Virus record (IMG/VR): IMGVR_UViG_3300005529_000001
Coordinates: 208,882-272,881 of that record
Origin: a virus
DNA length: 64,000 nucleotides
Direction: 5' to 3' (one strand)
In this document: one piece after another, positions 5,509 to 50,405 of the stretch
Layout: each line of letters begins with the position of its first letter
Numbering within the stretch: the stretch's first letter is position 1
Program-made: the position numbers and the translations under genes
Notes under the pieces: generated by a model
Database searches by the model: none
Told to the model about the DNA's origin: nothing
The model's input: the letters and a program-made list of their open reading frames with translations, nothing else

Positions 5509-5533
5509 CTGACCGATCGTACCGCGAAAACCC

Positions 5534-5944: not shown

Positions 5945-5970
5945 GATCCTAGCTAGACGCTAGGTCAGGA

Positions 5971-6378: not shown

Positions 6379-6386
6379 GGTTTGTT

Positions 6387-6653: not shown

Positions 6654-6674
6654 TGATAAGCCTCGAACGTGATC

Positions 6675-8912: not shown

Positions 8913-8920
8913 ACCCCAAC

Positions 8921-9187: not shown

Positions 9188-9555
9188 GCGACAGCTTTCT
9201 TAGCGACTGGAGCGGGCTGTTCAGCTGAACCCGCTTTGGTTGCCTCGGCCCAAGCAGTTTGGACTGCTTTGTGAACACGAGCCATCATCACCTCGGTTGC
9301 CTTGTTGGACGCTGCTTTGATCTGCTCCCAAGCTTGATCATCGAACTCACGGGTCTCCGCGTTGTATTGGTCCTTTGCCGCGAGCATCATGTTCTGCTGG
9401 ATCGCGCCCCGAAACGGTTGCTCTAGCGATGCAAGCGCTTTTGCGATGTTCGGCTGGTCCATCGGATCCTGGACAGGCTTGTTGTTCGCAAACGCAGACG
9501 GCGAGACCGCGACCTCTCGCAAGATCCGTTTCAAAGTGCCCAACCGAACCCTCAT
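9184..9555 (-). CDS. small protein with N-terminal MRVRLGTLKRILREV motif (paralog of 8921..9187)
   Basis: ORF; tandem, with 4-nt overlap. Confidence 0.55.
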   Translation of the reverse strand: MRVRLGTLKRILREVAVSPSAFANNKPVQDPMDQPNIAKALASLEQPFRGAIQQNMMLAAKDQYNAETREFDDQAWEQIKAASNKATEVMMARVHKAVQTAWAEATKAGSAEQPAPVAKKAVA

Positions 9556-9558
9556 GGC

Positions 9559-10098
9559 TCAGTGCCTCCCGCGGGGATGCATGGGAGGCAGGACAGCGTC
9601 TTCATCACCGCTAGCGTGGTAACCGCGTTGCGGCTCACGGCCCGTCGGGGCGTGCTTCTCTGGACCGCCAACATCGACATGGCCCGTGCCACCTGTAACC
9701 CCGCCAGCTTTCCCAGTATTCCGCGGGTGCATCGGGAGGATGTCATCCTCATCCATCTCGTCAAACTCACCCGACTGGAGCATGTCAGCCGTCTCTCTGA
9801 CGTCGTTCTCGATCAACCGGCACAAGTAATGAGAAGCGAGCTTGGCTGCGCGCCCATCGTCTACTTCTACGCCCTCATAGAGCTGGTTGTCTGAGTGAAA
9901 AGCCTCGATCAGGTCAATGATCGCGTGCTGGAGCGCTGTCGAGAGCTCGACCTTTCTGGGCGTCTCATCGAGCAACTCATCTTCTGCATCGATCCCTTCA
10001 AGGATCCGGTGACGCTCCTGCTGAGAGCTGTGAAACGCTCGTGACTCTTCGATGACGATCTCGTTGATCATCTCCTCTTGACGCTTCGTGAGCCCCAT
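9559..10098 (-). CDS. acidic hypothetical protein
   Basis: ORF; the ATG at 10098 is preferred over the GTG at 10107 because AGGAGTG lies 6 nt upstream. Confidence 0.5.
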   Translation of the reverse strand: MGLTKRQEEMINEIVIEESRAFHSSQQERHRILEGIDAEDELLDETPRKVELSTALQHAIIDLIEAFHSDNQLYEGVEVDDGRAAKLASHYLCRLIENDVRETADMLQSGEFDEMDEDDILPMHPRNTGKAGGVTGGTGHVDVGGPEKHAPTGREPQRGYHASGDEDAVLPPMHPRGRH

Positions 10099-10116
10099 CT
10101 GTGACACTCCTGAGCG

Positions 10117-10124
10117 ATAAGTAT
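10117..10124 (-). promoter_or_regulatory. ATAAGTAT box upstream of the 9559..10098 gene
   Basis: Same motif family; about 19 nt from the ATG. Confidence 0.25.
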
Positions 10125-10131
10125 GGCTCGC

Positions 10132-27700: not shown

Positions 27701-27973
27701 TGCGTTGGTCGGGTCAGCCCCCTCCTGGCCCATCGTCAGCTTGCTGAGGTACTGGGCTAGCGTTGTCTTTGTCGGGGTTGAGAGGTCCTTCGGCTTCCCA
27801 GACGAATCCTGGTAACCATCGCTGACATCGACGCCCTTGGTGTAAGAACCGTAGCCCGGCTGCCCGTTGATCTGTGCCTTTGCATCGGGCACGCCAACGT
27901 CATACGTTTGTTTTCTCCCGTTGAGGGGGAAACCATTGTCGCCAGTGTTGAGATTCTTTCCAGGGTCGGCCAT
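24728..27973 (-). CDS. large tail/baseplate protein (1081 aa)
   Basis: Long ORF between the tape measure and the X-like gene. Confidence 0.5.
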   Translation of the reverse strand: MADPGKNLNTGDNGFPLNGRKQTYDVGVPDAKAQINGQPGYGSYTKGVDVSDGYQDSSGKPKDLSTPTKTTLAQYLSKLTMGQEGADPTNAPPVGNKYPVGDGTATLNTVSTTDSKGFPAPLELPPQNPATFAGGAEKQVDYPTQQFTSIQQLVKKGLSSANATDGNDLLPGVTGTSTYVATDPTSLVGDAPQLKQTSIPGRTDTSAKIINPYTSAVLSNNRFTSAHAAFAQVADVTDPGNGYDPALSVQSKLGEWDPSAKSYTTGRLATIGPLLGLRATTTLGATSAGADPNSGGMEAAALLPGLAQLGTATIDQHVLQAKDILNSLTNDEVPSSNVISPGSQSWGQLNDTNDPYDGTNALGMVTLTLALVAGVQVVIGALGILMGLVTPQTKVAQRDSVGRYAVGQYFPASKPPNAVSGGGPLGAISALASLNFGALLGINPTVFPLSQAMNSGLAAFYGLPQPSGGISLSLSLSTATDSPGFLVNVSRSIIRGFVVISKSLSKIGGNPMNVINSVLSMIDTIRGSKVVAAINVWATLGDQILTLPSSDTDSTAVGGTKISTMDQLDDNLTHAAGKSRLQNSLKLAWASNRAPAQVLLPSTIIAASAGITGLGQFDPIIGIKHDPLSNVTAKVVDSSQGLARIDSATAQAFEATLDSEYVPFYFHDLRTNEMVAFHAFLASLTDDFSAAYEKTEGYGRVEPVRVYKSTERRIGLSFFIAATSEPDFDDMWVKINKLITLVYPQYTQGVQLSSPDGNYVFTQPFSQLIGASPLIRIRLGNLLHGNYSQFALARLFGMGNNNFKVNSYQSTATIDQGIIDKLPTLIATALANPDGTNDYYIAPGTYALASNNGGISLGAGALGGALGGSSNAPQFAPTFEPQKAHIPHLFTVTAMKSTAAAQGINPPGYPAPLVCQVKVNDDPQFQLAYAKAIQAAQGEYANTDKLIRNVIGGQYIIPPNALTPTSKTRQNIIAKQAPGSQTGADDLTNFLSPASNAIAKSFADTGGKGLAGFIETMSFDWYDKVTWELHTGRVAPKLCKVTLNFSPVHDISPGLDHFGYNRAPVYPVGPMAPGFIPPTNQ

Positions 27974-28260: not shown

Positions 28261-31200
28261 TCAACCGGCGCCTACTGGGTTCGGGCCCGGAACGTTGTCA
28301 GACGGGGTGTAACCGCTCAACGGGTTGGATGCTTTCTGGTCTGGATGTGACGTTGCAAAGTCAATACGATCTCGAACGATCGATCCAGCACGGAGGATCA
28401 TGACCTTTTCCACCTTGTCGACGTCCATCGTCACCTCCAGGTTGATGTTGAGCTGGACGTTTCTGCTTGGGTTGACTTGGTAGTTGACCTTGCCTCCCAG
28501 ACCGACTGTCTTAGCGACCTGGTCCAGCTTGGCTTTGACGTCAAAGTCCTTGTTGAGACCCTGTAGCGCTGTGTCAAGATCATTGCTCGCCTTGACCATC
28601 TCGCTGATGGCGACAAGCGCGCCTGTCACGCCACCCTTGCCATCACCCCTCAACGTTGAACCGAGCGCGCTCATGTTCTGTTCGAAACCTTGCAGCGTAT
28701 CGCTGATCAACTTGGAGTTGCCGGTTAGCTTGGTGAGTGAAGCGATCTGGTCATCATTGATGACATTGAAATCGACTTTTGATAGCTTGTCCTTGATCGT
28801 CTGAAGCGTCCCAGCGATGTCAAAGTTCTTGTCATCAAGCTGCTTCTGGACATCTTTCACTGCGCTGATGTTTTCAGACACTTGTGAGATGACGCTGGTC
28901 GTGCTTGCGGCAGCGTCTCGTGCGGCATCGGCGGTAGCATCGGTCGTTGTCTTGGTCATCGCTGCGGCTTTACGAGCTGCTTCTGACGCTTTGTCTTTCT
29001 CCGACCTAAGGTACTTGTCTTGGATCTCATCAGACGCTTGTGAGAATGCCGCTGACACGTCAGACATGCCCTTCGTCATCTGGTCAGACTTCTGATCGAT
29101 GGTCTTCTTGATGCTGTCAGTGAACCCATCGATCTTCTTAGCAAAGTCCGTACCAAAGACCTTGTCCAGACCCGAAGCCATTGAGCTGGCTAGCGATCCC
29201 ACCAATCCCAGGACAACGTTTTCGATCATCGTGAACAGCTGGATGCCTAGTTTGCCCAACACGATGGGCAACTGGATGAAAACGAGGTTCACCGCACCGA
29301 CCAACAACCTCAACACCGACAACCCTAGGTCTTTCATCGATTGGTTGATCGAAGCTTGGTCGCCCGTGAACAGGTTTGTCAAGACCGTCCACACAGAACC
29401 AAAGACCTCAAAAGCTCCCGCAAGAGCTTTCTTGAGAGAGTTACCGAACCCAGTCCCAAATGCTGAGTTGATGCTCTTGAAGAGCGTATCAACGACCTTG
29501 GCTAGCACGTTTGCGATCGTCGTCTGCAGGTCATCGGGCAACAAGCCCAATGTCAGAGCATCGATCAACCCCGTGGTGCCCGCCGCGATGACGGCCGAGG
29601 ACCGATCAAGAGTTGACGTCACGTCTTTGGTGTACTTGGCAACGCCACTGCCCACCGCAGCGGCAGCTGCAACGAACGCAGCAGGACCAGCAAACTTGGA
29701 GACGCCCTTCATCAACCCTTCGCCGGCTGTTGACTTAGCAAGCGATGCTCCAGCCTTCTGGATGACAGTCTTTGTCAAGCTTGGGATCACGTTTTTCAGT
29801 ATCGTTGTTCCCAATGCGCCCAGGATGCCACGACCAAACGCAGGACCAAACAGCATCGCTGCGAGAGCACCAAGCACGGGTTTCGCTATCGTAGCGATCT
29901 CCTTTTGGTGCTTTTTCATGAACTGGACAAACAACCGTCCCATTGTCTTGACAAGCGATTCCAAAGCGGGAGCGAGCACTGTCCATGCATGCTTCAAAGC
30001 ATCGACCAACGGGGTGATGACCTCCTGAAGGAAGCCCAAGCCTCCCTTTGCCGTCGCACCGGCTCCCTGGGCATAAGCCGACAAGCCTCCCGGTGTCGTC
30101 AGCATCTTGACGATCTCTCGGGCCCCCGTTGCAATCTCATCAGCGAGGTACTTGATGCCAGCTGCAGCGGTGGTGCTGAGGAACTTGAAGAACGTCTTGA
30201 AACCGCTAACCAGCTTCTTGGCACCGGGCTTTTCAATGTCAAAGAAGTTTTGGAACGTTTTCTTCAGGTTCATCACCAAGTCAGGGATGGAACCCTTTGA
30301 TGGGTTCTTTGGATCCATGCCAGGCTTGCCCAAGAACTTTTCGATAGCCTCGCTCACGCCCTTGAAGAGCGACGTGATCTTCTTTGGGTCAAACATCTCA
30401 TTAAGAGCTTTGCCAACCTCTTGGAAACCCGGGACTATCTTCACCAATGCACGTCCCAGGTCAACACCGATGTACATGACCTGACGCAAAGCGATGCGAA
30501 TCTTGTACATCAAGCCCACAAATTCCTGGCTTGACATGATGCCACGTCCGATGCCCGCGACGAACATCTTCCAGAAGCCGCCCTCCATGCCACCGCCCGA
30601 GAAGACCATGCGCTCGATGGCGTCGGCAAGCTTGCTCATCGCTTCAGCCTGGGTCAACGTCTTCTTCTCAGCCATGACGCTCTTCTTCTGGACTTGGTCC
30701 ATCGAGAGCCCCTGATTCTTGAGAGAAAGAGCTGATTGCACCGTTGCTTCATCAAGGCCCGTTGTTGACGCCACCAGCTTCAACTGCGCGCGGTTGAACT
30801 GGCTGGCATCCACCCCCGCCTTAGCAAAGCTCTTGCGCAACATGTCGAGCTGTTCAGCTGGCGACTGCGCCGACATCATCTCAAAAGCATCGACCTGGAC
30901 ACCCATCGCTTGTGACAGCTTGGCGGCATTCTCTGCGGCGGTGTCAAAGGTGTCAAAAGCGTCAAGCGTTCCCGTGATGTCTTTCAGCTCAAACCCTAGC
31001 TTGCGAGCGTACGTTGACGCTTCAGCGATCTGCTTGACGGTTGCACCACCAAAGTGAGCAACATCGCCCAACGCTTTGCCCATGTCCCTTGAGATCAGCT
31101 TAGCATCCAAGCTAAACGCATCGCCAAGCTCATAAGAGTACTTCGTCATGTCACGGAGGTTCTTCTCCGTCTTGGTCCCCATCGCAGTGCTGCGCATGGT

Positions 31201-32010
31201 GACGGCCTTCATCTCCTCGCCGGCCAGGCCCAAGCCCTTCTGGTAACCGAGGATCGCGCCACCGTTGTTCTCCATCTCGGCACGCAGCTTGGAGAAGGAG
31301 CCTCCCATGTCTTTGGCTAGCTCACCGATGTACTTCAAGCGGTCTGCCATGTTACCAAAGACGCGCCAGGTTGACAGCCCGGTATCTTTGAACCCAGTCA
31401 TCGACTTTGACGTGTCAATGATCGCTTTGTTGGTCGGTCCGTAGAAAGCTCCGAACTCCTTACGCAAGTCTTCAAGGGCTTGCATCAGCTCGTTGCTACC
31501 CCCAGCGCTCTGGGCTGCCATATCAATGAGCCCGCTAAAGATCTTGATTGGGATCGCCAAGATCGATGCGGTAATGTTCCCAAGCCCTGATATGAAGCTG
31601 GTCACAAAGCCGCCGACACCCTTGCCCACCGCGATGATGTTGCTCAAGCCCTGCGACAAGCCCGAGATTGCGCCAGTCGCTATGCCAACCGACTTGGGAA
31701 ACTTGTCGTGGAACTGCTTGCTAGACTCCTCAACTTTCTTGCCCAGCTTCTTGAAAACTGACTCACCCGTACGGCTGGTATCATCAAGCCCGCCCTTCAC
31801 TTTTTTCAGCGCATCAGCTAGCGCCTGTACTCCCTGAACGCTTCCCTGGACGTTGAGCTGTGACAGGGCTTGAGCCAGCTGTCCGAGCGTTGCTGATTGA
31901 GCGGTGTACGATCCCTCGAGCTTCTCCGCAGCGGCAGCCATGCGCTCGACCTGGGCGGCCAGCTTGGTCGTCAGCGCTAACTGTTCTGAGAGCTCGTCTT
32001 TTGAAGGCAC
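28261..32010 (-). CDS. tail tape measure protein (1249 aa)
   Basis: Very long Ala/Gly/Lys-rich helical ORF downstream of the tube/chaperone genes; GTG start. Confidence 0.8.
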   Translation of the reverse strand: MPSKDELSEQLALTTKLAAQVERMAAAAEKLEGSYTAQSATLGQLAQALSQLNVQGSVQGVQALADALKKVKGGLDDTSRTGESVFKKLGKKVEESSKQFHDKFPKSVGIATGAISGLSQGLSNIIAVGKGVGGFVTSFISGLGNITASILAIPIKIFSGLIDMAAQSAGGSNELMQALEDLRKEFGAFYGPTNKAIIDTSKSMTGFKDTGLSTWRVFGNMADRLKYIGELAKDMGGSFSKLRAEMENNGGAILGYQKGLGLAGEEMKAVTMRSTAMGTKTEKNLRDMTKYSYELGDAFSLDAKLISRDMGKALGDVAHFGGATVKQIAEASTYARKLGFELKDITGTLDAFDTFDTAAENAAKLSQAMGVQVDAFEMMSAQSPAEQLDMLRKSFAKAGVDASQFNRAQLKLVASTTGLDEATVQSALSLKNQGLSMDQVQKKSVMAEKKTLTQAEAMSKLADAIERMVFSGGGMEGGFWKMFVAGIGRGIMSSQEFVGLMYKIRIALRQVMYIGVDLGRALVKIVPGFQEVGKALNEMFDPKKITSLFKGVSEAIEKFLGKPGMDPKNPSKGSIPDLVMNLKKTFQNFFDIEKPGAKKLVSGFKTFFKFLSTTAAAGIKYLADEIATGAREIVKMLTTPGGLSAYAQGAGATAKGGLGFLQEVITPLVDALKHAWTVLAPALESLVKTMGRLFVQFMKKHQKEIATIAKPVLGALAAMLFGPAFGRGILGALGTTILKNVIPSLTKTVIQKAGASLAKSTAGEGLMKGVSKFAGPAAFVAAAAAVGSGVAKYTKDVTSTLDRSSAVIAAGTTGLIDALTLGLLPDDLQTTIANVLAKVVDTLFKSINSAFGTGFGNSLKKALAGAFEVFGSVWTVLTNLFTGDQASINQSMKDLGLSVLRLLVGAVNLVFIQLPIVLGKLGIQLFTMIENVVLGLVGSLASSMASGLDKVFGTDFAKKIDGFTDSIKKTIDQKSDQMTKGMSDVSAAFSQASDEIQDKYLRSEKDKASEAARKAAAMTKTTTDATADAARDAAASTTSVISQVSENISAVKDVQKQLDDKNFDIAGTLQTIKDKLSKVDFNVINDDQIASLTKLTGNSKLISDTLQGFEQNMSALGSTLRGDGKGGVTGALVAISEMVKASNDLDTALQGLNKDFDVKAKLDQVAKTVGLGGKVNYQVNPSRNVQLNINLEVTMDVDKVEKVMILRAGSIVRDRIDFATSHPDQKASNPLSGYTPSDNVPGPNPVGAG

Positions 32011-32346: not shown

Positions 32347-32682
32347 TCACTGGAACCGCCTGAGGCGACTCGGGGACTGGCTTCGCATCCTGCCCTGCAT
32401 TGTCCTGACATCAGGAGCGTTCTGGTGAAGTGCTCGTGACTGTGATGAGCTCCCATTCGGATCGTTCGGGTTGCTCTTGTTCAGTTCGGTGACGATCCTC
32501 TCGATCCACCACCGTTTGATGGGCACGGGGAGGTTGTACGCCTCCCCCGCTGTCATCCCACCGTAGTAGACCAACAGGAAGCACGGCTCCCAGATCAGCT
32601 GTTCTTTATCGCTGGGCTGCAGGCCAAAGAAAGTTGACCCCGATTGGCATCGAGACCTCCTCTTCGTGACCACAAGACGCAC
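32347..32682 (-). CDS. ORF in the +1 frame, overlapping the end of 32606..33493 (independent GTG-start gene or frameshift extension)
   Basis: No ATG; 77-nt overlap with the upstream gene. Confidence 0.3.
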   Translation of the reverse strand: MRLVVTKRRSRCQSGSTFFGLQPSDKEQLIWEPCFLLVYYGGMTAGEAYNLPVPIKRWWIERIVTELNKSNPNDPNGSSSQSRALHQNAPDVRTMQGRMRSQSPSRLRRFQ

Positions 32683-33493
32683 ACGTCACTTCCTGGCGCA
32701 TGATCATTCCTGGCTCATTGTCACGAATGTAGTTTCGCAAAGCCAGAGAGTCACGAGCGGGCATCATGCGGACGAACGCCGCGATCTTGGCTCGGTCTTC
32801 GATGTTATCGACAGACTGGATGCAGTGAAGCAGGTTTGATGTCACTGACGTCTCGTTCTGAGACAGCGCCAGCTTCTTCTGCTTCTCCTGCAAGGCAGTG
32901 ATCTGCTCTTCGTCACGGCCCGTCAAGAACTTGAAGCGGACGGTCTTCTTGCTCATGGGCAGCTGGAACTCAAACAGGTTCATCCCCTCTTGCACGGGGG
33001 CGATGCTCAGTCGCTTGATCGGCAGCTGGGCGAGGTTGAACGCTCTGGGTCCCTTCGTCTCGCACTCACCGCACTCGAGCTCCGCGTCATAATCAGCGCC
33101 GTACATGGTGATGCGGATCGCGACCATCAACGCATAGCGATCGCCGATGACCATGTCAATCGGATCGATCGCTTTGTTGACAAGGCACGACTTGATCAGC
33201 TCGGTGATGACCGTCCCCTTCTTCAGGAGGGCTCGGCTCGTCAAGATGTCTTCTTCACGAGCGGTACCAGCCCGGATCTCAACGAGCTCAACGCCGTGTA
33301 GCGGGTGGTTGGGCGGGTAGACGCGGCCTGCAGACGGCAACGGGACCGTCTCAACCGGGATCTCGATGCCGAAGTCCGCCTTGAACTTCTCAGCCTGCGA
33401 GAGAGCCTGGACGCCCGCTTGGACTGCGCCCGGGGGCGGTGCTTGTGTTGATGCAGAAAAGACTTGGTTACGCTGCTCGCGTTCCTCAGACAT
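32606..33493 (-). CDS. zinc-ribbon protein (295 aa)
   Basis: CGECE...CASCGH Cys pairs; SD GGAGCG. Confidence 0.55.
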   Translation of the reverse strand: MSEEREQRNQVFSASTQAPPPGAVQAGVQALSQAEKFKADFGIEIPVETVPLPSAGRVYPPNHPLHGVELVEIRAGTAREEDILTSRALLKKGTVITELIKSCLVNKAIDPIDMVIGDRYALMVAIRITMYGADYDAELECGECETKGPRAFNLAQLPIKRLSIAPVQEGMNLFEFQLPMSKKTVRFKFLTGRDEEQITALQEKQKKLALSQNETSVTSNLLHCIQSVDNIEDRAKIAAFVRMMPARDSLALRNYIRDNEPGMIMRQEVTCASCGHEEEVSMPIGVNFLWPAAQR

Positions 33494-33794: not shown

Positions 33795-34073
33795 TCACCA
33801 GTGCGCTTTTGCAGGAGTTGGCTTCGCAACGAGATGCCATACGATATCTTCGTCACGAAAGCCGTGTGCTTTCAGCCCGTTTGCATCCAGTGGGACGACG
33901 AGCCCACGTTCCTGCATTGTCTCGAGCATCTCCTGCGTCCGAGCCAACGACCACCCAACGTACAGCGAGATGGCTCCCAAGTACATAGGGCGGGCAACCC
34001 TATGGAGGTAACGCTCGATTATTTCGAGGACAACCTGTGGGGGCTGCTTGCCATCACGGAGCCACGAGGCCAT
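33795..34073 (-). CDS. winged-helix DNA-binding-like protein (92 aa)
   Basis: ISLYVGWSLARTQEMLETMQERGLVVP resembles a wHTH recognition unit. Confidence 0.45.
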   Translation of the reverse strand: MASWLRDGKQPPQVVLEIIERYLHRVARPMYLGAISLYVGWSLARTQEMLETMQERGLVVPLDANGLKAHGFRDEDIVWHLVAKPTPAKAHW

Positions 34074-34089: not shown

Positions 34090-34614
34090 TCAGTCAGCTG
34101 CGGGTGGAAACAGGTCAGGACGAGATTTCATCCATTCATCAGCTTCTTTAGCGAACTGTTCGACTTTCTCGGTCACCGTGTAGAGCAGCGAGTTCCCCCG
34201 TTTGCCTACGTCCTTGACCAAGCCTCGAACCAGGACGCCCTGGGCCAACGGTCCCGTCACATCGTTTGGGACTTCTTCATAGTTCCCAAGGAAACGACCC
34301 GGGGTCTCCGGGTCTTGGACGAGTTGGCCGTGTTCGTTACGTTGCCACTGCATCTTCATTCTCGTTGCAGGGGCCCAGTACGAAACGTTGCTCGTTGGCT
34401 TGAAGCTAACGGGATCCTTGCCTTCAAGGCTATGAACTTGCTGCATCACCTCGGGACGGGTCAGCGGACGCCCAGCATGCCACAGAACATAACAGATCAT
34501 GTGGACCTTGTCTCCGGGATAGCCCCTGTCACCGACAGCTTCCCGGATCACGGACTTCAGCTCTGCGAGGGTCAGCTGCATGCTCATATGTATCGCGTGT
34601 GTCAGAAACGACAA
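34090..34614 (-). CDS. hypothetical protein with internal start candidate MQLTLAELKSVIREAV (shared propeptide-like motif)
   Basis: ORF; a likely true start about 11 codons in would place the motif at the N-terminus. Confidence 0.45.
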   Translation of the reverse strand: MSFLTHAIHMSMQLTLAELKSVIREAVGDRGYPGDKVHMICYVLWHAGRPLTRPEVMQQVHSLEGKDPVSFKPTSNVSYWAPATRMKMQWQRNEHGQLVQDPETPGRFLGNYEEVPNDVTGPLAQGVLVRGLVKDVGKRGNSLLYTVTEKVEQFAKEADEWMKSRPDLFPPAAD

Positions 34615-34720: not shown

Positions 34721-35209
34721 TCAGAACTGCAGAACGGCGTTGTCGAAGCGCAGCGTCAGGCTGATCTCAGCCAGGGTACCGTCTTCATAGGTGAGCTCGC
34801 CGAAGTTAGCTTCGGTTATCCAGGCGCCCTTGATGTCCCAGAGCTCGACAACGGTGCCGACCGGGTCAAGCAGCTTCAGCTGGATGTCACGCTTGTAGAA
34901 GTCAGCGTAGCCAGCGCGGCCCGAGACAGTCTCCAGGGTCAGGCGGATCCACTCCATGACCTGCTGCGCGCCCGAGGGAGCGATCGGGTCATAGAGCGTC
35001 ACAGCCAGGGTATTGAACTTCGTCAATCCCGCAAGGTAACGACGGAAGTTGATGAACGGCACCTCGACCTCTTCCGTGGTCACGGTCGGGCGTGCAGTGG
35101 TCTTCATGATGTAGGCGTCGATTCCCTCGATCATGAGCACCCAACGGTTCTTCCGCTTGGGTTCAAACTTGTTTGGAAGCATCGACGTTACGTCGAGTGT
35201 CTCAGCCAT
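34721..35209 (-). CDS. tail tube protein (gp19 family)
   Basis: LPNKFEPKRKNRW ... TLRFDNAVLQF resembles T4 gp19 (RPNLFQVEI ... TLALDYWE); adjacent to the sheath genes; SD AGGAGAG. Confidence 0.8.
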   Translation of the reverse strand: MAETLDVTSMLPNKFEPKRKNRWVLMIEGIDAYIMKTTARPTVTTEEVEVPFINFRRYLAGLTKFNTLAVTLYDPIAPSGAQQVMEWIRLTLETVSGRAGYADFYKRDIQLKLLDPVGTVVELWDIKGAWITEANFGELTYEDGTLAEISLTLRFDNAVLQF

Positions 35210-35245: not shown

Positions 35246-35275
35246 GGCCTTGCGAGTTCGCTGCCCCTTGCGGGA

Positions 35276-35683: not shown

Positions 35684-35697
35684 GAAGCTACCCTAAA

Positions 35698-38600
35698 TCA
35701 CCCCTGTTGCGAGATGTTGTTCGTCACAACGAAGTCCAACGAGACGTACTCGAGCGACTTGGTGGGCTGGACGAAGATCTTCCCGCGGATGGTGTTGTTC
35801 TCGATGTCGAGCTGCGTCGTTGTCGAGGAGTCGATGACGACCTTGAAACGCTGCAGGCCAGCCTGGGCCTGGATCTTCTGCAAGACGGGGGTGACCGCCG
35901 CAGAGAACCGAGCCAGGGTTGCGTCACGGTTCTGCTCGAACAGGATGGTGTTGGCAATGTCACGGACCTGGCGACGGATCTCGATCAGGAGGCGCCGCAC
36001 GTTGACACGGTCAAGGGCCGAAGCAGCTTGCTGGAGCGTCTTCTGTCCCCAGACCACCACGCCACCCTTCGGGTTGGTGCCGCCCGAAGCGTTGCCCGGG
36101 AAGGCGACCAACGGGTTGACGTTGGCGTCGTAAAGGGCGTCCATGTTGGTCTTCGACAGCTTGACACGAGCCTCGAGGGTCGTCTGCAACGCACCACGAG
36201 TGAAGCCTGCGGGAGCGAACCATGGGTGACCGACCGCGTCGTTGAGAGCGAGAGCGCCCAGGACGGCGACAGACGGGGGAGCAACGACGTTGTTGCCCGT
36301 GTTCGGATCGGGCATCACGACGTCTGGGAAGTACGCTGCACCGAAGCTGCTGTTCACTGACCGCAGCAGGAAGTTCTGCAGCGTGTATGTCACGCTGGGC
36401 AGCTGCGTGTCGGTGGTGACCAGCTGGTCGTTGTTATCATACTGGTCGATGTCCATCAAGAACATGCAATCAAAGCGCTGTTCACAAGCCGCCAATGCTG
36501 CGTCAGTGACGACCGGGTGCCTGATGCCGGGAACGGCGAGCAACATGATGTCCACGTTCGTGGTGTCGCTCATGATGTTGAGGCCAGCGTTGTAAGCTGA
36601 CACTGTCGATCCGAGGTTGAAACCACGGTTCGATGCATTCATGTCATCTTCAACGGCGGTGTTCGTCAGCTGGCGCTGGTCGGGATCAAACAGGTTGGTC
36701 CCATCGAAACCTCCCTGGACCATGAACGTCCACTTGAGGAAGCGCCTGTTGGCCTGGACGAAGTCGCTCGGCAACAGCGCACGGGTTGCAGCGGAGTTGT
36801 TCGTTGCAATGTTCCCGTTGCGGACATAGACTGCGTTCACCCACTGTGTCGGGTCGGCGATGCCAGCCGAGCTGGTGACGACCTGGATGTTCAGCAAGCT
36901 GAAGGCGTTGAAGTTGAACCTGTCGGCGTCCATGATGGCGCCGTTGACGGTGGGTGCTCCGGGCTTGCCACCGTTCTCATACCCAATGCGGACGTTCTGC
37001 GCATCGGTGCGGAACTCGGGCAAGAACTTTGCAAAAGCATGCATTGACTGGTTTGCCAGCGTGCTCAAGTTCGGGGTTGACACACTAGCAACGTGCTCAA
37101 ACTGCATGCCCCAGTACAGCAAGGGGTTGACCTGCAGCTTGGCGCCAGAGCCCTGCGTGATGTTCTGCCGCAGCGGGACCGGCGGCTCGATGACTTGGCT
37201 TGCCCAGGTGGTGCTGTTCAGCGCGATCTCGCTAGAGCTACCGCTGATCAACGAGTTTGCAGGCTGTGCCAGGCAACCGCCAGCTGTCACCAAGTGATGG
37301 ATGCCACGAAGACCGACAGGCAACACCGTCGGATCGACCTGGCCGAGGTCAGTTGACGTATCCATCTCGATGCGGATGTAGTTCGAAGCGTTCGGGTACT
37401 GGCCATCAACGACCAGCTTCTGTGCGGTCGGTCCACGGTCAAAGTCAAAGAACGCGTGGGCGTCACCGATGACAGCAGCGATGTACCGTGAGTCGCTTGG
37501 GTTCAGCGTCAGGCCGCGGAACTGCTCGAGGTAGACGGGTGCTCCGTCGGTGTCACCCCACTGGCGGACGACCAGGTCAAAGGTGCCGTACTGGTTCAAC
37601 GGATCGGTCGAGAGCGCGATGTTCTCGATGCTGATCTTGTAAAGCCTGCTAACGTTGAAGCCGTCATCAAGGGCGTGGACGCGGAACAGGTTGTGGGGCT
37701 TGCCGCCGAACGGTTGTGAGACAACCCACGGTGACGTTGCGTGCTCAAACCGGTCACGGAAGTCCTCATAGTCGGGGACGGTCGATGAACCGTTGTCATA
37801 CTGCAACGAGCTGGTCAAGATGAACGCTGCAAACTCAGCGCCCGGAACGTTTGCAGACGCTGCGCCGGCGCCGAACGAGGAGCTGACGAGACCCGATCCG
37901 GTGACCACTGCCTGCGCAGGGTGGATATCATAGTGGCTGTAGAGGTAGTGACCTGCCTGTTGCAGGTTGTCAGGGTTGGTGTTCAGGACGTTCGCAAAGT
38001 AGTTTGGCGACGTCATGTCGAACGACGCGGTGATCACGTTCGGGAACAGTGGGTTCGTTCCCATGAGACCGTTAAGGAAGAGGACGAAGTCTTGCTTGGC
38101 GATCGACCCAGCGAACAACGTCACGTCACCGATGCTTGCACCGTTGTTGTCAGTCGCTACTGCAGTTGCAGGCGGAGCAACGTTGGTCTGCGCTCCCGTG
38201 AGCGGGAACGAAGCTGACAGCGTCAGGATGACGCCTGAGGCGGCCATGATCATGCCGCGGACGATCGGGACACACGAACCGGACGTTGACGTTGTCTGGA
38301 TGCCCGCAGACGAGAAGAACGTTGAGCCGGCCGACTCGGACATGAAAGCGCCCAAGAAGTACGTACGACCCGACAGGTAGCTGGTCCGGCCTGGTTGGAC
38401 GGGAGTTGCTCCCGTCGATGACGTCGGGTTAGCATAAGGGTTTGGGCTCAGCTGACCATTGTTGTTGGGATCAGGTTCCTTTTCGCCGACTGTCCAGCCT
38501 GCGCCTGTCACGCCACCTGTTGCACTGTTGGGACCCGAGGGTTGGCTAGCGAGACCCTGCCGTGCTTGTCCCTGGCCAACGCCGAGCACCCTGACGTAGG

Positions 38601-38844
38601 TCAGCGCTTGCGCGTTGCGGAGCCACTCTGTCACCGCAAGCGGGCCAAACTTCCGGCCATCAGTCTGACCAAACTTTCCATAGAAGTCGTTGACCAGACC
38701 AACAGTGACAGGAACGAATGCTGGGCCCTTCAAAGAAGTGCCAACAACGCCTGCTGGGGTGCCTGTCGGGGTGATCGCTAGCGGTTGAGAGAGATCGATC
38801 TCTGTCGTCGATACTCCTGGCGCGCCGAACTTGAGCTGTGACAT
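35698..38844 (-). CDS. tail sheath protein, copy 1 (1048 aa)
   Basis: N-terminus GVSTTEIDLSQP...GTSLKGPAFVPVTVG sheath-like; paralog of 38954..42142; C-terminus FVQPTKSLEYVSLDFVVTNN. Confidence 0.8.
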   Translation of the reverse strand: MSQLKFGAPGVSTTEIDLSQPLAITPTGTPAGVVGTSLKGPAFVPVTVGLVNDFYGKFGQTDGRKFGPLAVTEWLRNAQALTYVRVLGVGQGQARQGLASQPSGPNSATGGVTGAGWTVGEKEPDPNNNGQLSPNPYANPTSSTGATPVQPGRTSYLSGRTYFLGAFMSESAGSTFFSSAGIQTTSTSGSCVPIVRGMIMAASGVILTLSASFPLTGAQTNVAPPATAVATDNNGASIGDVTLFAGSIAKQDFVLFLNGLMGTNPLFPNVITASFDMTSPNYFANVLNTNPDNLQQAGHYLYSHYDIHPAQAVVTGSGLVSSSFGAGAASANVPGAEFAAFILTSSLQYDNGSSTVPDYEDFRDRFEHATSPWVVSQPFGGKPHNLFRVHALDDGFNVSRLYKISIENIALSTDPLNQYGTFDLVVRQWGDTDGAPVYLEQFRGLTLNPSDSRYIAAVIGDAHAFFDFDRGPTAQKLVVDGQYPNASNYIRIEMDTSTDLGQVDPTVLPVGLRGIHHLVTAGGCLAQPANSLISGSSSEIALNSTTWASQVIEPPVPLRQNITQGSGAKLQVNPLLYWGMQFEHVASVSTPNLSTLANQSMHAFAKFLPEFRTDAQNVRIGYENGGKPGAPTVNGAIMDADRFNFNAFSLLNIQVVTSSAGIADPTQWVNAVYVRNGNIATNNSAATRALLPSDFVQANRRFLKWTFMVQGGFDGTNLFDPDQRQLTNTAVEDDMNASNRGFNLGSTVSAYNAGLNIMSDTTNVDIMLLAVPGIRHPVVTDAALAACEQRFDCMFLMDIDQYDNNDQLVTTDTQLPSVTYTLQNFLLRSVNSSFGAAYFPDVVMPDPNTGNNVVAPPSVAVLGALALNDAVGHPWFAPAGFTRGALQTTLEARVKLSKTNMDALYDANVNPLVAFPGNASGGTNPKGGVVVWGQKTLQQAASALDRVNVRRLLIEIRRQVRDIANTILFEQNRDATLARFSAAVTPVLQKIQAQAGLQRFKVVIDSSTTTQLDIENNTIRGKIFVQPTKSLEYVSLDFVVTNNISQQG

Positions 38845-38862
38845 CTAGTGCCTCTGCGCTCT

Positions 38863-38869
38863 AAGTATC
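38863..38869 (-). promoter_or_regulatory. TAAGTAT box upstream of sheath gene 1
   Basis: Same motif family; about 19 nt from the ATG. Confidence 0.3.
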
Positions 38870-38953
38870 GGATCGTCACGTTTATGGACCCACGAAAGAA
38901 AACGGCCCGAGAAACTCAACGAGCCCCTATGTAAAGGGCCCGTTGTGAGTGAC

Positions 38954-41900
38954 TCACACGAACTGGACGCCGCTGTTCGTGATGATGAAGTCAACTGCGA
39001 TGAACTCAACCACGCGGGTCGGGACCACGACGATCCGACCGTTCATCTTGTACTGGTCAACGTCAGCTTGCGAGTTGTTGGTCGAGTTGCAGATGACCTG
39101 GAAGGCTTCGATGCCTGCCTGGGTCTGGATCAGTCCCAGTTGCAACACTGCCTGTGCAGTGAACTTGTTCTGGGTGTCGGGCGTGTTCTGCTCGAACTCC
39201 AGTTGCAGAGCGATGTTGCTGATGATGCGCTTGACCTCCAGCAACAGACGCCTAACGTTGACCCGGTCAAGAGCCGAGGGCTTGGCTTGCAGTGTCTTCT
39301 GGCCGAAGATGACGAATCCCTGTCGTGGGAACGTTGCGATCGGGTTGATGCGGCTAGAGTACAGCGTGTCCCGGTCGCTCGAGTTGAGACGCACGCCCAC
39401 GTTGACAACGAAGTCGAGCGCTGCGCGGTTGAAGCCCGCAGGAGCGAACCATGGGTAACCGATCTTGTCGTTGAAGCCCAGGGCTCCCAACGCTGCGATC
39501 GAAGCGGGCACCTTGACACGACGGTTGTTGACCACGTCCTGGATGAAGACATCCGGGAAGTAGGTTCCCATGTAGTTGTTGTCGATAGCACGGGTGTTGA
39601 GACCGACGCTGGTCTGACCCACGTCTGCACGGACCGCGCTACCGTTTGCCCCGATGGTGGTCGAGTACAATCTGTTCTGTAGCTCGTCATAGTTTACCAG
39701 GTCCATGACGTAGAAGGCCAAGCCGTAGTCACGGACATGGCTTCCCGCGTAATCCGTCAGGAAGGGCTCTCGGATGCCCGGCATCGCCAGGATGTTGTGG
39801 TTGACCTGCATCGGGTCAGTCATGATGGTGAGGGCCGTGACGTACGAGGAGACGTTGGAGTTGCTCTGGCCCGTTCCGTTCATGTTGGCAGCAAACCCAG
39901 GCGGGATGAAGCCCGGGAACGCACCGCCAGTATCACCCAACAGGTTCGAATCGAACGACGTTGACTTGTCGTTCATGCGGCTAGCGTCAGGATCCAAGAA
40001 GTTGACACCGTCCCAGCCGCCGGCCAAGAAGGTCGAGAACTTCAGGTAAGGAGCAAAGCGGTTGAACTGCTGTGCTGTTCCCTTGGCGAGCAAGGTTGCC
40101 AGGGTGACACGCCGGCTTGCCGTCTTCTGGTTGTTGAGCTCGACCGGATCGATGTAAACGTACGTCGCGCCATCCAGCACGCCGTTTCTGATGTAAGCTG
40201 CTTCACGCATGTGACCGTCGATCGACGCCGTCAAGCCGCTGAGGCTCGTCCCATCAAAGACGTCGGTGAAGTCGTTCGAAAGAGCAACCTTGGCCAGCGT
40301 GAACTTGTTGTCACAGAACTGGTCTGCGCCTGCCCCGGTGACGAACGTGTCCAAGCCAGAGCAACCCAGGAACTGGGTGTAAGAGCTGATGCAGTTGTTT
40401 GCCACCGTCTCAACGTTCGGGTTGAGTGGGATGTCGAGACGCTCGAACTGGACGCCCCAGTACAACGGCGGGTAAGAGATCTCGGTGGGAGCGGGGTTGC
40501 CGAACCAGGACGTTGACGTCGGGCGGTTTCCCTTGGTCACCTTGGTGCGGAACGGAACTGGGGGCAAGACCGAACCAGTCAACGCGTTTGCGCTGCCCGA
40601 GGTCACGCCATACAGACGAGTGAAAGCTGCCTGGAGAGCGTTGCTTGCACCTGCCGACAGGACGCCGTTTGACGCACCATCAGTCAAGCTATCGTTGGTC
40701 TTCAACAGTGCCGCGCCGCGGAAACCGAAGGGCAAGCACTGCGGCGGCACTCGAGCCTGGTCAACTGCGTCAGTTGGGATGACGCGGATGTAAGCAGACT
40801 GGTTCTGGTACTTGCCACGTGACACGACACGTTGCTCGGTGCTGATCGTTGCATCAAAGTTGTAGTAGACCTTGCGATCGCCGATCACGTTAGCGATGTA
40901 GTTTGCAGCCGTCGGGTCAAGGCTCAGGTTGTTGAACTGCTCCAGGACGTTCGGGTTGATGTCGGTGTCATCCCAGCTGCGGACCTGCAACGCAAAGGTT
41001 CCGTACTTGTAGCTGTCAACGGTCGATGCTTGCAGGTTGACGATGCTGATCTTGAAGAGGTTGTTGGCGTACTGGCCGTCATCGAGCGCTTCGACACGGA
41101 ACAGGTCGTACTCCACCTTGCCAAAGGGCTGGCTGATGAACTTCGTCGTCGTTGGGGTCTGGTAACGGGCGTCAAACGCTCCGTACGAGGCCCGGTACGT
41201 CGTGTTGTCGTTATAGGGGGCACCCGTGAACGAGAGGTCCGCGTTGTTCTGGCTGCTGTTTGTCGAGCCGATCAGGACACCCGCGATGTTTGCCGTAGCG
41301 ATCTGATCATCAACGGCGAAATCAGCGTAAAGAACGTGTTGCGATGCAACGAGGCTGTCCGGGTTGCTGTTCAGCAGCTTGGCAAAGTAGTTCTTGTCAT
41401 CGGGATCGAAAGATGCAGTCAGGATCTTGCAACCCGGGTTGCCATCATCGTTTGCAAACGAAGTGCCCAACGTTGAGCTGATGATCAGCTTGAAGAAGCC
41501 GCTTGGGCTGGTTGGCGATGTCCCCTGCATGACACCGAAGTCCTGCAGTGAGTCGATCTTGCCTTTGACCGAGAAGTCGTTGTTTCCGTCTGCGACGCAC
41601 AGGCGAGCGCCCGAGGCCATCAGGACCATGCCCCTGATCAGGTGCGCGGTGCCACCCGAGAAGCTGTCGTTGTCGGTGAAGATCGCGGGACCCAGGATCT
41701 CGTTGCCCTGGACCAGGTGTTGGGCGACCAAGAACTGCACTGCGCCCGTGAAACGGCTGCCTGAGACGTCAGAGATTGAGACTGCTGTCCCGTTCAGGTG
41801 GAACCCGGCGTTGACAGTGCGACCCGTTGCCGTGGTTCGTGAGATGTCAGTGCCCGTTGCATTGGCACCCGCGCCCAAGACCCTAAGGTAAGTCAGGGCT

Positions 41901-42142
41901 TGGCGGTTTGCCAAGAAGTAGTAGGCGGCGTAAGGGCCGAAGCGGTTGGGGTCCAGGGTGCCGAAGACGGCATTGAACTGGTCGAAGTTGCCGACAGTGA
42001 CAGGCACGAAGGCCGGGCCACGGTTCGACGTCCCGATCACACCGGCGGGGACTCCGACCGGCCCCTGTGGGGCGGGAGCGGAGAGATCGATCTCTCGCTG
42101 GTAGAAATTGGGGGACAGAAAAGTCTGCAGCTGCTGCGGCAT
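38954..42142 (-). CDS. tail sheath protein, copy 2 (1062 aa)
   Basis: N-terminus REIDLSAPAPQGPVGVPAGVIGTSNRGPAFVPVTVG; C-terminus RIVVVPTRVVEFIAVDFIITNSG; SD AGGAG. Confidence 0.8.
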   Translation of the reverse strand: MPQQLQTFLSPNFYQREIDLSAPAPQGPVGVPAGVIGTSNRGPAFVPVTVGNFDQFNAVFGTLDPNRFGPYAAYYFLANRQALTYLRVLGAGANATGTDISRTTATGRTVNAGFHLNGTAVSISDVSGSRFTGAVQFLVAQHLVQGNEILGPAIFTDNDSFSGGTAHLIRGMVLMASGARLCVADGNNDFSVKGKIDSLQDFGVMQGTSPTSPSGFFKLIISSTLGTSFANDDGNPGCKILTASFDPDDKNYFAKLLNSNPDSLVASQHVLYADFAVDDQIATANIAGVLIGSTNSSQNNADLSFTGAPYNDNTTYRASYGAFDARYQTPTTTKFISQPFGKVEYDLFRVEALDDGQYANNLFKISIVNLQASTVDSYKYGTFALQVRSWDDTDINPNVLEQFNNLSLDPTAANYIANVIGDRKVYYNFDATISTEQRVVSRGKYQNQSAYIRVIPTDAVDQARVPPQCLPFGFRGAALLKTNDSLTDGASNGVLSAGASNALQAAFTRLYGVTSGSANALTGSVLPPVPFRTKVTKGNRPTSTSWFGNPAPTEISYPPLYWGVQFERLDIPLNPNVETVANNCISSYTQFLGCSGLDTFVTGAGADQFCDNKFTLAKVALSNDFTDVFDGTSLSGLTASIDGHMREAAYIRNGVLDGATYVYIDPVELNNQKTASRRVTLATLLAKGTAQQFNRFAPYLKFSTFLAGGWDGVNFLDPDASRMNDKSTSFDSNLLGDTGGAFPGFIPPGFAANMNGTGQSNSNVSSYVTALTIMTDPMQVNHNILAMPGIREPFLTDYAGSHVRDYGLAFYVMDLVNYDELQNRLYSTTIGANGSAVRADVGQTSVGLNTRAIDNNYMGTYFPDVFIQDVVNNRRVKVPASIAALGALGFNDKIGYPWFAPAGFNRAALDFVVNVGVRLNSSDRDTLYSSRINPIATFPRQGFVIFGQKTLQAKPSALDRVNVRRLLLEVKRIISNIALQLEFEQNTPDTQNKFTAQAVLQLGLIQTQAGIEAFQVICNSTNNSQADVDQYKMNGRIVVVPTRVVEFIAVDFIITNSGVQFV

Positions 42143-42177
42143 TACCGTGCTCCTATAGCGCGCTGTGAATCGCTATA

Positions 42178-42186
42178 GTAAGTACC
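42178..42186 (-). promoter_or_regulatory. TAAGTAC box upstream of sheath gene 2, inside CTATAGCG...CGCTATAG inverted repeat
   Basis: Same motif family. Confidence 0.25.
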
Positions 42187-42214
42187 ACCCGCACGGGTGA
42201 AAGACCACTAACGG

Positions 42215-48190: not shown

Positions 48191-48966
48191 CTGTAGCGGC
48201 TACGGACGTACTGCCTCAGCAGGTCCTGGTTGGTCTTTGAAGCAACGTTGAAGGCACCGATCTCGTAGATCTTGCCCGGGAAGGCGCGGTTGCTGACAGC
48301 GCCGATGAGGCCCACGTAGAGGGTGTTGGTCTGCGTTGCGCTGGTGTACGTGGAGATCGACTGCTGGAAGATGGTCTGTCCGTTCATCGATATCGTCAGC
48401 ACCCCGCCGTCCCACACTGACTCGATCATGTACGTCGAGTTGTTGACCATCGTCGCTGTGGGGATGTTCTGTGCCTGCAGCAGGCCCGGGTAGAGGAATG
48501 ACCACGTCCCCTGGCCGCTGATGACGTTGATGCCCAGGCCGACGCCGTCGCCCGTGTTGGGACCCGTCCATGCGCTTGTCGAGTTCTTGTCGAAGATCGG
48601 ACCGTGGATGGTGTGGGTGCCCGGCCACGTCGCTGGGGTGCCGATGACAGCCCACAGGTGGATGGGGCCCGTCCCAGTGTTCCAGCCCGCCGGGTTGGCA
48701 ACGTTGAAGGCGCCGATGATGGCATCGGTGGTGTCGCACAGCATCTGGTGACTGGGCTGCGGCGAGTCGCTGGGCAGCCACAGCGGGTTGGTGCTGCCAC
48801 CGATGTTGAGGCCGAGGAGGTGGTTGCCATACGGAGACATGTCTGCCCACCGCACCACCGAGGTGTTGGAGTTGGCAGTGACGCCCATGTCGGCACGGCA
48901 CCACAAGATGCAAGCGTTGCCTGGCACCGACGGGTTCCAGTTGGGGGCGCGGCCGATGACTGTCAC
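48181..48966 (-). CDS. LamG/jellyroll-like fiber protein, paralog 3
   Basis: ACILWCRADMGVTANSNTSVVRWADMSPYGNH ... QYVRSRYRCF. Confidence 0.55.
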   Translation of the reverse strand: MTVIGRAPNWNPSVPGNACILWCRADMGVTANSNTSVVRWADMSPYGNHLLGLNIGGSTNPLWLPSDSPQPSHQMLCDTTDAIIGAFNVANPAGWNTGTGPIHLWAVIGTPATWPGTHTIHGPIFDKNSTSAWTGPNTGDGVGLGINVISGQGTWSFLYPGLLQAQNIPTATMVNNSTYMIESVWDGGVLTISMNGQTIFQQSISTYTSATQTNTLYVGLIGAVSNRAFPGKIYEIGAFNVASKTNQDLLRQYVRSRYRCF

Positions 48967-50405
48967 GACCAGTTCCCCGGGTTGTAGCGGCTCGCCAGGT
49001 ACTGGAAGAGCCAGGAGAGCTCGACCTGCGACAGCGGCCTGTTGAAGAACATGATCTCAGCGATCTTTCCATTGAGGGTGATGGTGCCTGTTCCCGTGCC
49101 TCCCAGCGACTCGACGCCCGACGGGCTCGTTGCGCCCGCGGAACCCGCCCCGACTGAACCGCTGCTGTTGTTGATGTAGAGGGCTGAGCTGGCGACGTTG
49201 AAGACCGCTGCCATGCACAGGCTACGGCCGTTGGCGTTTGCGTAGGGTCCCAAGGCGCTGACGTTGCTGCCGGCGAACATCGCCCAAGTGGCGCCAGTCC
49301 AGTAGGGCCCAGTGACGTTGTTGACCGAGTCGCCAAAGAATTGCTGCTGTGTCGCTCCGCTGGTTGACTCACCGACGACAACGCAGGTCATCGGTTGCGA
49401 CGGCATGATTTTCTGCAGCGCCAGCGATTGGGTGCTGGCTTTGGTGAACTGGACGGTGGGCTGGCCGTTGTAGCCCGGGTCGCTCGGGACCAGGACGGGC
49501 CTGTTGGCCAGGGTGCCCTGGCTGGCGTTGTTGCCGTTGCCGCTGATGTCCGACCACGATTGGACGTTGCCTGCGTTGTCGAGCGAGACACCTTGGTCAG
49601 CACGCCACCAGCCGACCAGCCCATTCATCTGCGTCGGTTGGAAGCCCACACCTCGTGATCCACCCCCCACATTGTAGCGGGTCATCAGGTAACGGGTGAC
49701 CAGGGCAGCTTGGGCATCGCTGAGCACGTTGGTATAAGAAATGGCCTCGAACATGTCGCCTGCAAAGAACAACGAACCCCCGTTACGGCTGCCGATGACA
49801 GTGCCTCCGTTGCCGTTGTTGGGCGGGAAGTTATTGTAGGGAGCTTGGTGCTGTTGGCCGTTGACCAGCAGGTTCCATGTTCCACCTGGTGTTTCGGTGA
49901 CTTGCCAGATCTCGGTATTGGTGCTGATGTCGTCGAAGATGGGAAAGCTGCTGACGCTGGCGATGTTGACATTGCGCTTGCCACCCGTGATCGGATTGAA
50001 ACCGATCTCGAGGCCGCCTGACCCGCCCGATGGGTTGTCACGGGTCGACAGGAAGAAAGAGAAGTTTCCAGGCGTTAGCGTCGAGTACCTGATAGCGAAG
50101 AAGTAGGTGCAGTTGGTGGTCGTCAGGTTGACTGATGATGTTAGGTTTTGTGTAGATCCATTGAATGACAGTTTGGGGATGTTGGGTAACCCGTTGACGC
50201 CGCTTGAACCGGTGTACTGCGGTGGTGACAGGGCATTTGATGGGGTGAAGATCGATCCGTTGGGCGACTGGTCGACCCACTGGGAGACGAAGCTGCCGCT
50301 GAGGGTCACGCCCAGGTCAGAGCGCAACCACAGCTGGCAGCCCGCGATGCTAAGCGGGTTGAAAGCAGCGGCCGAGAACCTCAGACCTGTTCCGGGACCG
50401 GGCAC
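48963..50405 (-). CDS. double LamG/jellyroll-like fiber protein (two repeats of the paralog domain)
   Basis: Two internal copies: CQLWLRSDLGV...SQWVDQSPNG and GWWRADQGVSLDNAGNVQSWSDISGNGNN; ends QYLASRYNPGNWS. Confidence 0.55.
   Translation of the reverse strand: MPGPGTGLRFSAAAFNPLSIAGCQLWLRSDLGVTLSGSFVSQWVDQSPNGSIFTPSNALSPPQYTGSSGVNGLPNIPKLSFNGSTQNLTSSVNLTTTNCTYFFAIRYSTLTPGNFSFFLSTRDNPSGGSGGLEIGFNPITGGKRNVNIASVSSFPIFDDISTNTEIWQVTETPGGTWNLLVNGQQHQAPYNNFPPNNGNGGTVIGSRNGGSLFFAGDMFEAISYTNVLSDAQAALVTRYLMTRYNVGGGSRGVGFQPTQMNGLVGWWRADQGVSLDNAGNVQSWSDISGNGNNASQGTLANRPVLVPSDPGYNGQPTVQFTKASTQSLALQKIMPSQPMTCVVVGESTSGATQQQFFGDSVNNVTGPYWTGATWAMFAGSNVSALGPYANANGRSLCMAAVFNVASSALYINNSSGSVGAGSAGATSPSGVESLGGTGTGTITLNGKIAEIMFFNRPLSQVELSWLFQYLASRYNPGNWS

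Follow-up and report, generated by a model that had tools for sequence, protein, structure and literature searches.

Among phages, a tail sheath made of two different proteins is known from PaBG and its relatives (PMC7412058). PaBG is a 258-kb Pseudomonas jumbo phage with a published 'two-component tail sheath' of gp76 and gp213 (Kurochkina et al. 2018, as presented in PMC7412058). The two PaBG proteins are about 58 kDa each, are 38 % identical and were both recorded in the virion proteome (PMC7412058, Table 1, section 3.5.4), and the pair arose by a duplication within the group of PaBG (PMC7412058). The extracellular contractile injection system (eCIS) PlPVC1 has three sheath paralogues, of which Pvc4 starts the sheath, while Pvc2 and Pvc3 form alternating layers joined by handshakes (PMC12546770). 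Two-protein sheaths have further been noted for 'some phage genomes', and sheaths of 1100-1500 amino acids (aa) are known, which are multi-domain 'type 3' proteins with extra beta-rich surface domains (PMC9230969). In the literature we searched there was no high-resolution structure of a phage tail with two sheath paralogues, PaBG was the only experimentally supported phage case found, and the Eneladusvirus and Cronobacter papers that name 'tail sheath genes/proteins' describe no double sheath. Here we analysed a 64-kb stretch of viral DNA (IMG/VR record IMGVR_UViG_3300005529_000001, positions 208,882 to 272,881; hereafter the window), in which two adjacent genes encode unusually long sheath proteins. 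We call the upstream copy A (38954..42142, minus strand, 1062 aa) and the downstream copy B (35698..38844, minus strand, 1048 aa). The two are probably paralogous major subunits of one contractile tail, which would make its sheath a heteromeric, two-component one.

Two paralogous sheath genes in tandem

Both genes are intact reading frames without any frameshift, and they are separated by 109 nt. The long open reading frames (ORFs) on the opposite strand over this region are shadow ORFs of the kind usual in GC-rich coding sequence. BLASTP aligned A and B across their whole length with 32 % identity (E = 1e-159), which becomes 40 % when identity is counted over shared columns. Using tblastn, we found no third sheath copy in the window. 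Both proteins matched PHROG_23 'tail sheath' (B, E = 3.2e-56; A, E = 6.7e-48), and B exceeded the 26.9-bit cut-off of the Pfam family PF17482 (Phage_sheath_1C) with 28.0 bits, A staying under it with 22.7 bits. When PDB sequences were searched with phmmer, T4 gp18 (659 aa) and T4-like sheaths ranked first for both copies; residues 849-1061 of A aligned to residues 446-651 of gp18 (E = 1.6e-28) and residues 819-1041 of B to residues 435-645 (E = 4.7e-23).

The structures predicted by AlphaFold2 from 78-sequence alignments reached a mean predicted local distance difference test score (pLDDT) of 80.3 and a predicted template modelling score (pTM) of 0.79 for A, and a pLDDT of 74.4 and a pTM of 0.74 for B. 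Searched against PDB using Foldseek, both models gave T4 gp18 and the sheaths of Klebsiella phage KP1 as best matches over their full length (E about 1e-14, probability 1.00). The next-best matches were sheaths of eCIS, pyocins and other phages, which cover only a core of about 300 residues. A and B are true tandem paralogous tail-sheath genes, T4 gp18-type and multi-domain, and neither of them is a pseudogene or a protein of another class. A preliminary description of this DNA, made from the sequence alone, had already read two adjacent paralogous sheath genes of 1048 and 1062 aa here, and its reading agrees with the coordinates, BLASTP, PHROG_23, PDB and Foldseek. It had also called for a pairwise alignment, which returned the full-length homology given above, and had considered that one copy might be a frameshifted pseudogene, which the two intact frames contradict.

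T4 gp18 and the T4-like sheaths (PDB 3J2M and 9MKB; KP1, 9EV2/9F4A) are thus the best matches by both sequence and structure, and the gene order is also T4-like, with gp13-like/neck genes preceding the sheath and the gp19 tube and a T4-type baseplate hub coming after it. T4, however, has a single sheath gene of 659 aa, whereas here there are two, each about 400 aa longer through added central domains. In both copies the extra length follows the N-terminal segment and precedes the gp18-like C-terminal domain, in the centre, where the preliminary description had placed it, and makes the central inserted region about twice the size of its gp18 counterpart. The best-kept parts of A and B are the N-terminal segment (58/42 % identity per 50-aa block) and the gp18-like C-terminal domain (34-50 %). 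The approximately 700 central residues, predicted to be mainly beta-strand, contain most of the indels and range between 16 and 52 % identity per block, with a well-conserved stretch at A 351-450. They can nevertheless be aligned and are homologous throughout. The claim of shared terminal sheath signatures around diverged centres therefore stands for the ends and has to be softened for the centres, which are more variable yet homologous, and the suspicion that the centre of one copy might not be sheath-related was not borne out by the alignment. No Pfam or PHROG family covers the central domains, and the fold searches gave sheath proteins only. For one B-type orthologue (locus L017, 1233..4541) the alignment is in two parts that share a frame, and about 59 additional residues lie close to B residue 530, which suggests that this variable, low-confidence loop tolerates large insertions.

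To characterise the residues specific to each paralogue, we compared the alignment columns of 57 A-type and 21 B-type sequences. We identified 198 columns that are conserved and identical in both clades, including the motifs PWFAPAGF, GQKT and DRVNVRR, and 79 columns that are fixed within each clade and different between A and B. Of these 79, 33 fall in A 851-1050, which is the gp18-like C-terminal core. The first 15 or so residues, corresponding to the exchange arm, are also clade-specific (QTFrSPNF.. in A, LKFGsaGV.. in B). Both the N- and the C-terminal arms are present and conserved inside each clade, with pLDDT below 50 for the N-terminal 25 or so residues in the monomer models. In solved sheaths the N-terminal arm and the C-terminal core carry the beta-strand handshakes between subunits (PMC12546770). 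The fixed differences cluster in these parts, which suggests that the lattice positions of A and B are distinct and complementary and not equivalent to each other.

Conservation of the pair and its separate origin

Homologue searches returned more than 2000 matches for each copy. The top 120 matches of A and of B were proteins of about 1000 aa, with orthologues 56-78 % identical to A and 59-80 % identical to B, encoded on contigs of up to 357 kb, and the clade comprises hundreds of clusters at 90 % identity. Recognising the same contig by its identical size, we found about 44 contigs of at least 20 kb common to the two top-120 lists. We fetched one ENA soil contig and 14 IMG/VR contigs, and in all 12 of the related loci that extend beyond A on its downstream side, B came directly after A and the tube gene after B. 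The orthologues in the fetched loci are 60-78 % identical, and A versus B stays at about 33 %. The third-position GC content (GC3) of the sheath genes ranges from about 0.43 in the low-GC loci L011 and L016 to about 0.90 on the side of L004, L006 and L007, with sheath protein identity still at about 62 %, and so wide a range at this identity implies that the hosts of the clade differ greatly in base composition.

We built a neighbour-joining tree of 29 sheaths from 781 columns. The A and B sequences formed two clades with 100 % bootstrap support each, which were sisters with 81 %, and the internal topologies of the two were congruent. The A-A and B-B distances of eight same-contig pairs were correlated with r = 0.92 and had practically the same means (0.268 and 0.267), which indicates that the copies are under equal constraint and co-evolve. 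The pair apparently goes back to one old tandem duplication at the base of the clade, after which both copies evolved in parallel. That one copy could be a decaying duplicate, or the pair an assembly artefact, has a negligible chance: no point in its favour was found, and the age, equal constraint and retention of the pair across the clade exclude it. Intact ORFs, hundreds of orthologues of each copy at 56-80 % identity from independent assemblies and several data sources, and a gene order kept in all 12 loci and over GC3 values from 0.43 to 0.91 refute this option.

The likeness to PaBG is considerable, as both are jumbo myoviruses with two full-length paralogous sheaths from a lineage-specific duplication and a comparable divergence (38 % there, 32 % by BLASTP here). 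However, the PaBG sheaths are small two-domain proteins of 528 and 547 aa, their genes lie about 117 kb apart and not in tandem, and PaBG stands outside the T4-like lineage of the window; presence in the virion was shown for PaBG and is a prediction for A and B. The tree places the PaBG pair far from A+B as a monophyletic group with 100 % bootstrap; identities are 25-26 % across the pairs and 40-42 % within them, and A and B do not descend from the gp76/gp213 duplication (the 'Lupandier' lineage). The two cases may be analogous in function, and to judge from the tree they are independent in origin. A further pair is found in the uncultured 484-kb megaphage LR756508.1 (L001), which encodes two 824-aa sheath paralogues at 4825..7299 and 8314..10788, about 1 kb apart and 29 % identical (E = 6e-102); its second copy is joined in the tree, at 98 % bootstrap, to the sheath of Microcystis phage Mel-JY01, which has a single one. 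We considered one ancient duplication common to A/B and either the 484-kb megaphage or PaBG and rejected it, as there is no A/B-specific orthology signal. Because the PaBG pair holds at 100 %, the megaphage copy with Mel-JY01 at 98 % and A+B at 81 %, the bootstraps favour three separate duplications.

The sheath genes of the eCIS resemble A and B in that paralogues (Pvc2/Pvc3/Pvc4, Afp2/3/4) lie in one cluster and share a gp18-like core, over the approximately 300 residues of which the structural matches extend. They differ in coming from capsid-less, tailocin-like particles with subunits of 350-450 aa and three paralogues including a dedicated initiator, whereas A and B belong to a true phage with capsid and T4-like replication genes and are two subunits of nearly equal size, about 1050 aa. 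The eCIS proteins co-polymerise through handshakes of N- and C-terminal beta-strands, and for A and B it is the tandem paralogy that we see. With capsid and replication genes in the window and a phage contig of about 370 kb, this is not a capsid-less bacterial eCIS locus. As for size, the largest viral sheaths in BFVD reach 1492 aa, and multi-domain sheaths above 1000 aa occur in LacPavin_0818_WC45 (1283 aa), Mad1_20_16 (1248 aa), S-TIM5 (1137 aa) and S-CBWM1 (1492 aa). Those four were described as single proteins and no conserved tandem pair was reported for them.

Neither the length nor the duplication of the sheath is therefore new in kind. What is new is an independent and very widespread instance. 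The preliminary description had called the encoding of two sheaths this large uncommon, which is correct in that they are rare and overstated in view of PaBG (PMC7412058), of 'some phage genomes' and of the sheaths of 1100-1500 aa (PMC9230969). The two-sheath trait is no oddity of PaBG, as it is fixed in a large and diverse clade of uncultivated jumbo phages of the T4 superfamily, and the question of why a phage should have two sheath proteins becomes a comparative one with at least three replicates (this clade, the lineage of the 484-kb megaphage and PaBG). The matched sets of A and B orthologues can be used for co-evolution analysis, multimer modelling and polysheath work.

Candidate expression signals and the probable composition of the sheath

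We estimated codon bias using the capsid and tube genes as reference set. Among the other genes of the window, A and B have the strongest bias, with codon adaptation indices (CAI) of 0.61 and 0.58 and effective numbers of codons (Nc) of 40.5 and 42.9. The replication genes and the two genes just upstream of the sheath pair range between 0.37 and 0.45 in CAI, and the likely low-copy neighbours orf476 and orf227 have 0.43. The situation is similar in five relatives (L003, L004, L006, L007 and L014), where A and B are at or near the top of the locus and close to the tube gene; four GC-rich loci among them give Nc values of 30-35 for both copies.

Each gene has its own upstream signals. A TACTTA box (TAAGTA on the plus strand) lies 36 nt upstream of the A start at 42179..42184, and a second one 17 nt upstream of the B start at 38862..38867; both are on the minus strand and are candidate promoter elements. 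They are followed by Shine-Dalgarno-like sequences, AGGAG 7 nt before the ATG of A (42150..42154, minus strand) and AGAGG 6 nt before that of B (38851..38855, minus strand), read directly from the sequence. In A orthologues the box has the same position and reads TACTTA, TAGTTA or TATTTA, and the Shine-Dalgarno sequence is kept as (t)agaggagcacggtaATG. In B orthologues the box is kept as gaTACTTAgagcgcagagg, or as atagtta in distant loci, and the AGAGG is kept as well. A conserved leader with the Shine-Dalgarno sequence follows the box in the orthologous loci before both genes, so the box and ribosome-binding site that the preliminary description had assigned to each gene are present and hold their positions in the orthologues.

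The window contains eight copies of TACTTA/TAAGTA against 3.07 expected by chance, and seven of the eight lie 10-46 nt upstream of minus-strand start codons (10118-10123, 28020-28025, 38862-38867, 42179-42184, 58752-58757, 60797-60802 and 62972-62977, all on the minus strand). The genes preceded by them include those of the major capsid protein, the adjoining 706-aa protein, a 1081-aa protein, ribonucleotide reductase and both sheaths. TACTTA is a candidate for a phage-specific promoter element, possibly analogous to the late promoter box of T4, and we flag this conserved promoter-like motif for the clade.

Directly after the A stop codon we identified a GC-rich, terminator-like hairpin at 38909..38955 on the minus strand (RNA folding energy -33.7 kcal/mol, z = -3.1). 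Hairpins of differing sequence occupy the same position in L003, L004, L007 and L014, that is in all loci tested, with z between -2.3 and -3.1, and U-rich tails follow them in L003, L004 and L014. The hairpin was detected by folding only; a scan of 34600-42400 for sigma-70 promoters and simple terminators gave no enrichment over shuffled sequences and did not call it. A and B would appear to be initiated separately, a terminator or attenuator lying between the two.

The heteromeric sheath is the best-supported reading of these data, because the two copies are strictly co-retained, evolve at an equal rate, have an equally strong codon bias and carry fixed differences in arm and core. The preliminary description had already suggested it, and on these four features we infer that both proteins are in the virion and co-polymerise. 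It seems likely that both are bulk components of the sheath of the same tail. As a scenario, a gp18-type sheath gene of the ancestor, which had already grown by additional surface domains, would have been duplicated in tandem at the base of the clade, and both copies would then have become indispensable. Each of them would be made abundantly from its own promoter-like element, the hairpin after A separating the two units; the shared sheath core would have been kept and different residues fixed in the N-terminal arm and the C-terminal core; and A and B would alternate as hexameric layers, as was solved for Pvc2/Pvc3 in the Photorhabdus PVC particle. Alternating layers, taken from the eCIS analogy, are the leading, if tentative, proposal for the geometry, and alternation within rings instead of between layers is also possible. 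Rather doubtful is the strongest version, in which the sheath is an obligate heteropolymer of A and B, strictly alternating in its lattice and with a doubled axial repeat, and is a fixed trait of a large, global clade of uncultivated 300-370-kb phages. The preliminary description offered one more arrangement, in which A and B may form spatially distinct segments of the sheath.

Several points weigh against a heteromeric sheath. The pair is known from sequence alone, in this phage as in all members of the clade, and a search of GenBank phages for DNA nearly identical to 35000-43000 gave no match, so there is no isolate of the clade among them. Codon bias is a soft proxy for protein abundance, and the low-GC loci L011 and L016 give no signal either way. 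The N-terminal arms (residues 1-26) have low AlphaFold2 confidence and the handshake therefore rests outside the models. The terminator-like hairpin between A and B could give unequal expression, and the fixed differences in the core would be equally expected if one copy had specialised for a terminal ring.

The last two points belong to a reading in which one paralogue is the bulk sheath and the other a low-copy ring comparable to Pvc4/Afp4, serving as sheath initiator at the baseplate or as the terminal ring of the neck side. PlPVC1 provides the precedent, as Pvc4 is a dedicated sheath initiator (PMC12546770); the hairpin together with the separate box of B would permit the unequal expression required, and the clade-specific core substitutions also fit adaptation to a partner in the baseplate or neck. 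Known initiator paralogues, however, differ in architecture from the bulk subunit, whereas A and B have the same length and the same domain layout and are homologous throughout. Their evolutionary rates are also the same, and the codon bias of both is that of abundant virion proteins, unlike that of orf476 and orf227. Equal size, rate and codon bias argue against a division into bulk and ring without being decisive, and we regard it as unlikely. We see still less room for two alternative or redundant sheaths, either of which alone would build a full sheath under different conditions, in different hosts or in two types of tail. The promoter-like box of each gene makes differential use formally possible, but the boxes are the same motif with no sign of different regulation, and the pair has a single conserved tube gene and a single baseplate module next to it. 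Redundant copies are normally lost, and here there was no loss in 12 loci, the pair occurs in about 44 contigs and the rates are identical, so that redundancy is quite improbable.

A new, non-contractile role of one copy, for example as an outer layer of decoration, as a polysheath-like structure or as a different scaffold associated with the tail, would agree with the approximately 700 central residues being variable surface domains without a family match, and functional novelty is common after duplication. On the other hand, both copies retain the invariant core motifs within the 198 shared columns, both keep the N- and C-terminal arms, and both predicted structures superpose on gp18 over the full length. 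We consider such a role highly improbable.

If the alternating heteropolymer were true, jumbo phages would have acquired two-protein sheaths on at least three independent occasions, which would suggest a general selection on very large tails, e.g. for a periodic surface where fibres or decoration proteins dock, or for tuned energetics of contraction. The finding adds to known biology without overturning it, and its value would rise if an obligate alternating lattice or a convergence linked to tail size turned out to be true.

The phage and other genes of the window

The phage is evidently an uncultivated jumbo member of the distant T4 superfamily with a genome of about 370 kb, because its matches to phages are below 50 %, no near-identical phage DNA exists in the database searched and one protein of the window is identical to a protein on a 369,506-bp metagenomic contig. 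Among deposited phages, those with the most similar sheath and capsid proteins are Microcystis phage Mel-JY01, the megaphages LR756508 and LR756511, the Flavobacterium 'immuto' phages and Rhodothermus phage RM378, all with less than 50 % identity. Besides the sheaths, the window encodes a T4-type major capsid protein, a UvsX-like recombinase, a DnaB helicase, a ribonucleotide reductase and a DNA polymerase. Upstream of the sheath pair there are a gp13-like gene and two genes without assignment.

Downstream of the pair, the gp19-like tail tube protein, the inner partner of the sheath, is encoded at 34721..35209 on the minus strand (PF06841, E = 5.5e-7; PHROG_4542, E = 3.6e-29). All related loci have this gene, with 81-99 % identity, at a distance of 0.5-1.5 kb on the downstream side of B. 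It is followed by a T4-type baseplate hub gene (T4_baseplate) at 32606..33493. Between the tube and hub genes, a 92-aa ORF (33795..34073, minus strand) has a weak match to an IclR-type helix-turn-helix domain, under the Pfam cut-off.

In PaBG (L018), two adjacent genes annotated as tail tube, gp74 (662..1165) and gp75 (1226..1732), stand beside the sheath gene gp76, and the tube of PaBG may thus also be two-component. We considered 34090..34614 as a comparable tube paralogue in the window and rejected it, as it has no similarity to the tube. There is a second tube-like gene at 5534..5944 (minus strand, 136 aa), the product of which is 33 % identical to the gp19-like tube (E = 6e-21) and is without segments of 16 and 13 aa. 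It is surrounded by nucleotide-metabolism genes, and the tail module is about 29 kb away. We ruled it out as a partner of the sheath pair in general, because it has only about eight orthologues, confined to the close subclade of the window.

Four large ORFs on the minus strand have no Pfam or PHROG match, namely 21448..24426 (992 aa), 24728..27973 (1081 aa), 28261..32010 (1249 aa) and 60829..62949 (706 aa). The first three come after the baseplate hub gene and may encode baseplate or fibre proteins; the fourth adjoins the major capsid gene. Finally, a 480-aa protein encoded at 48963..50405 on the minus strand has a Laminin_G_3/ConA-like lectin domain and a PHROG match to 'virion structural protein'.

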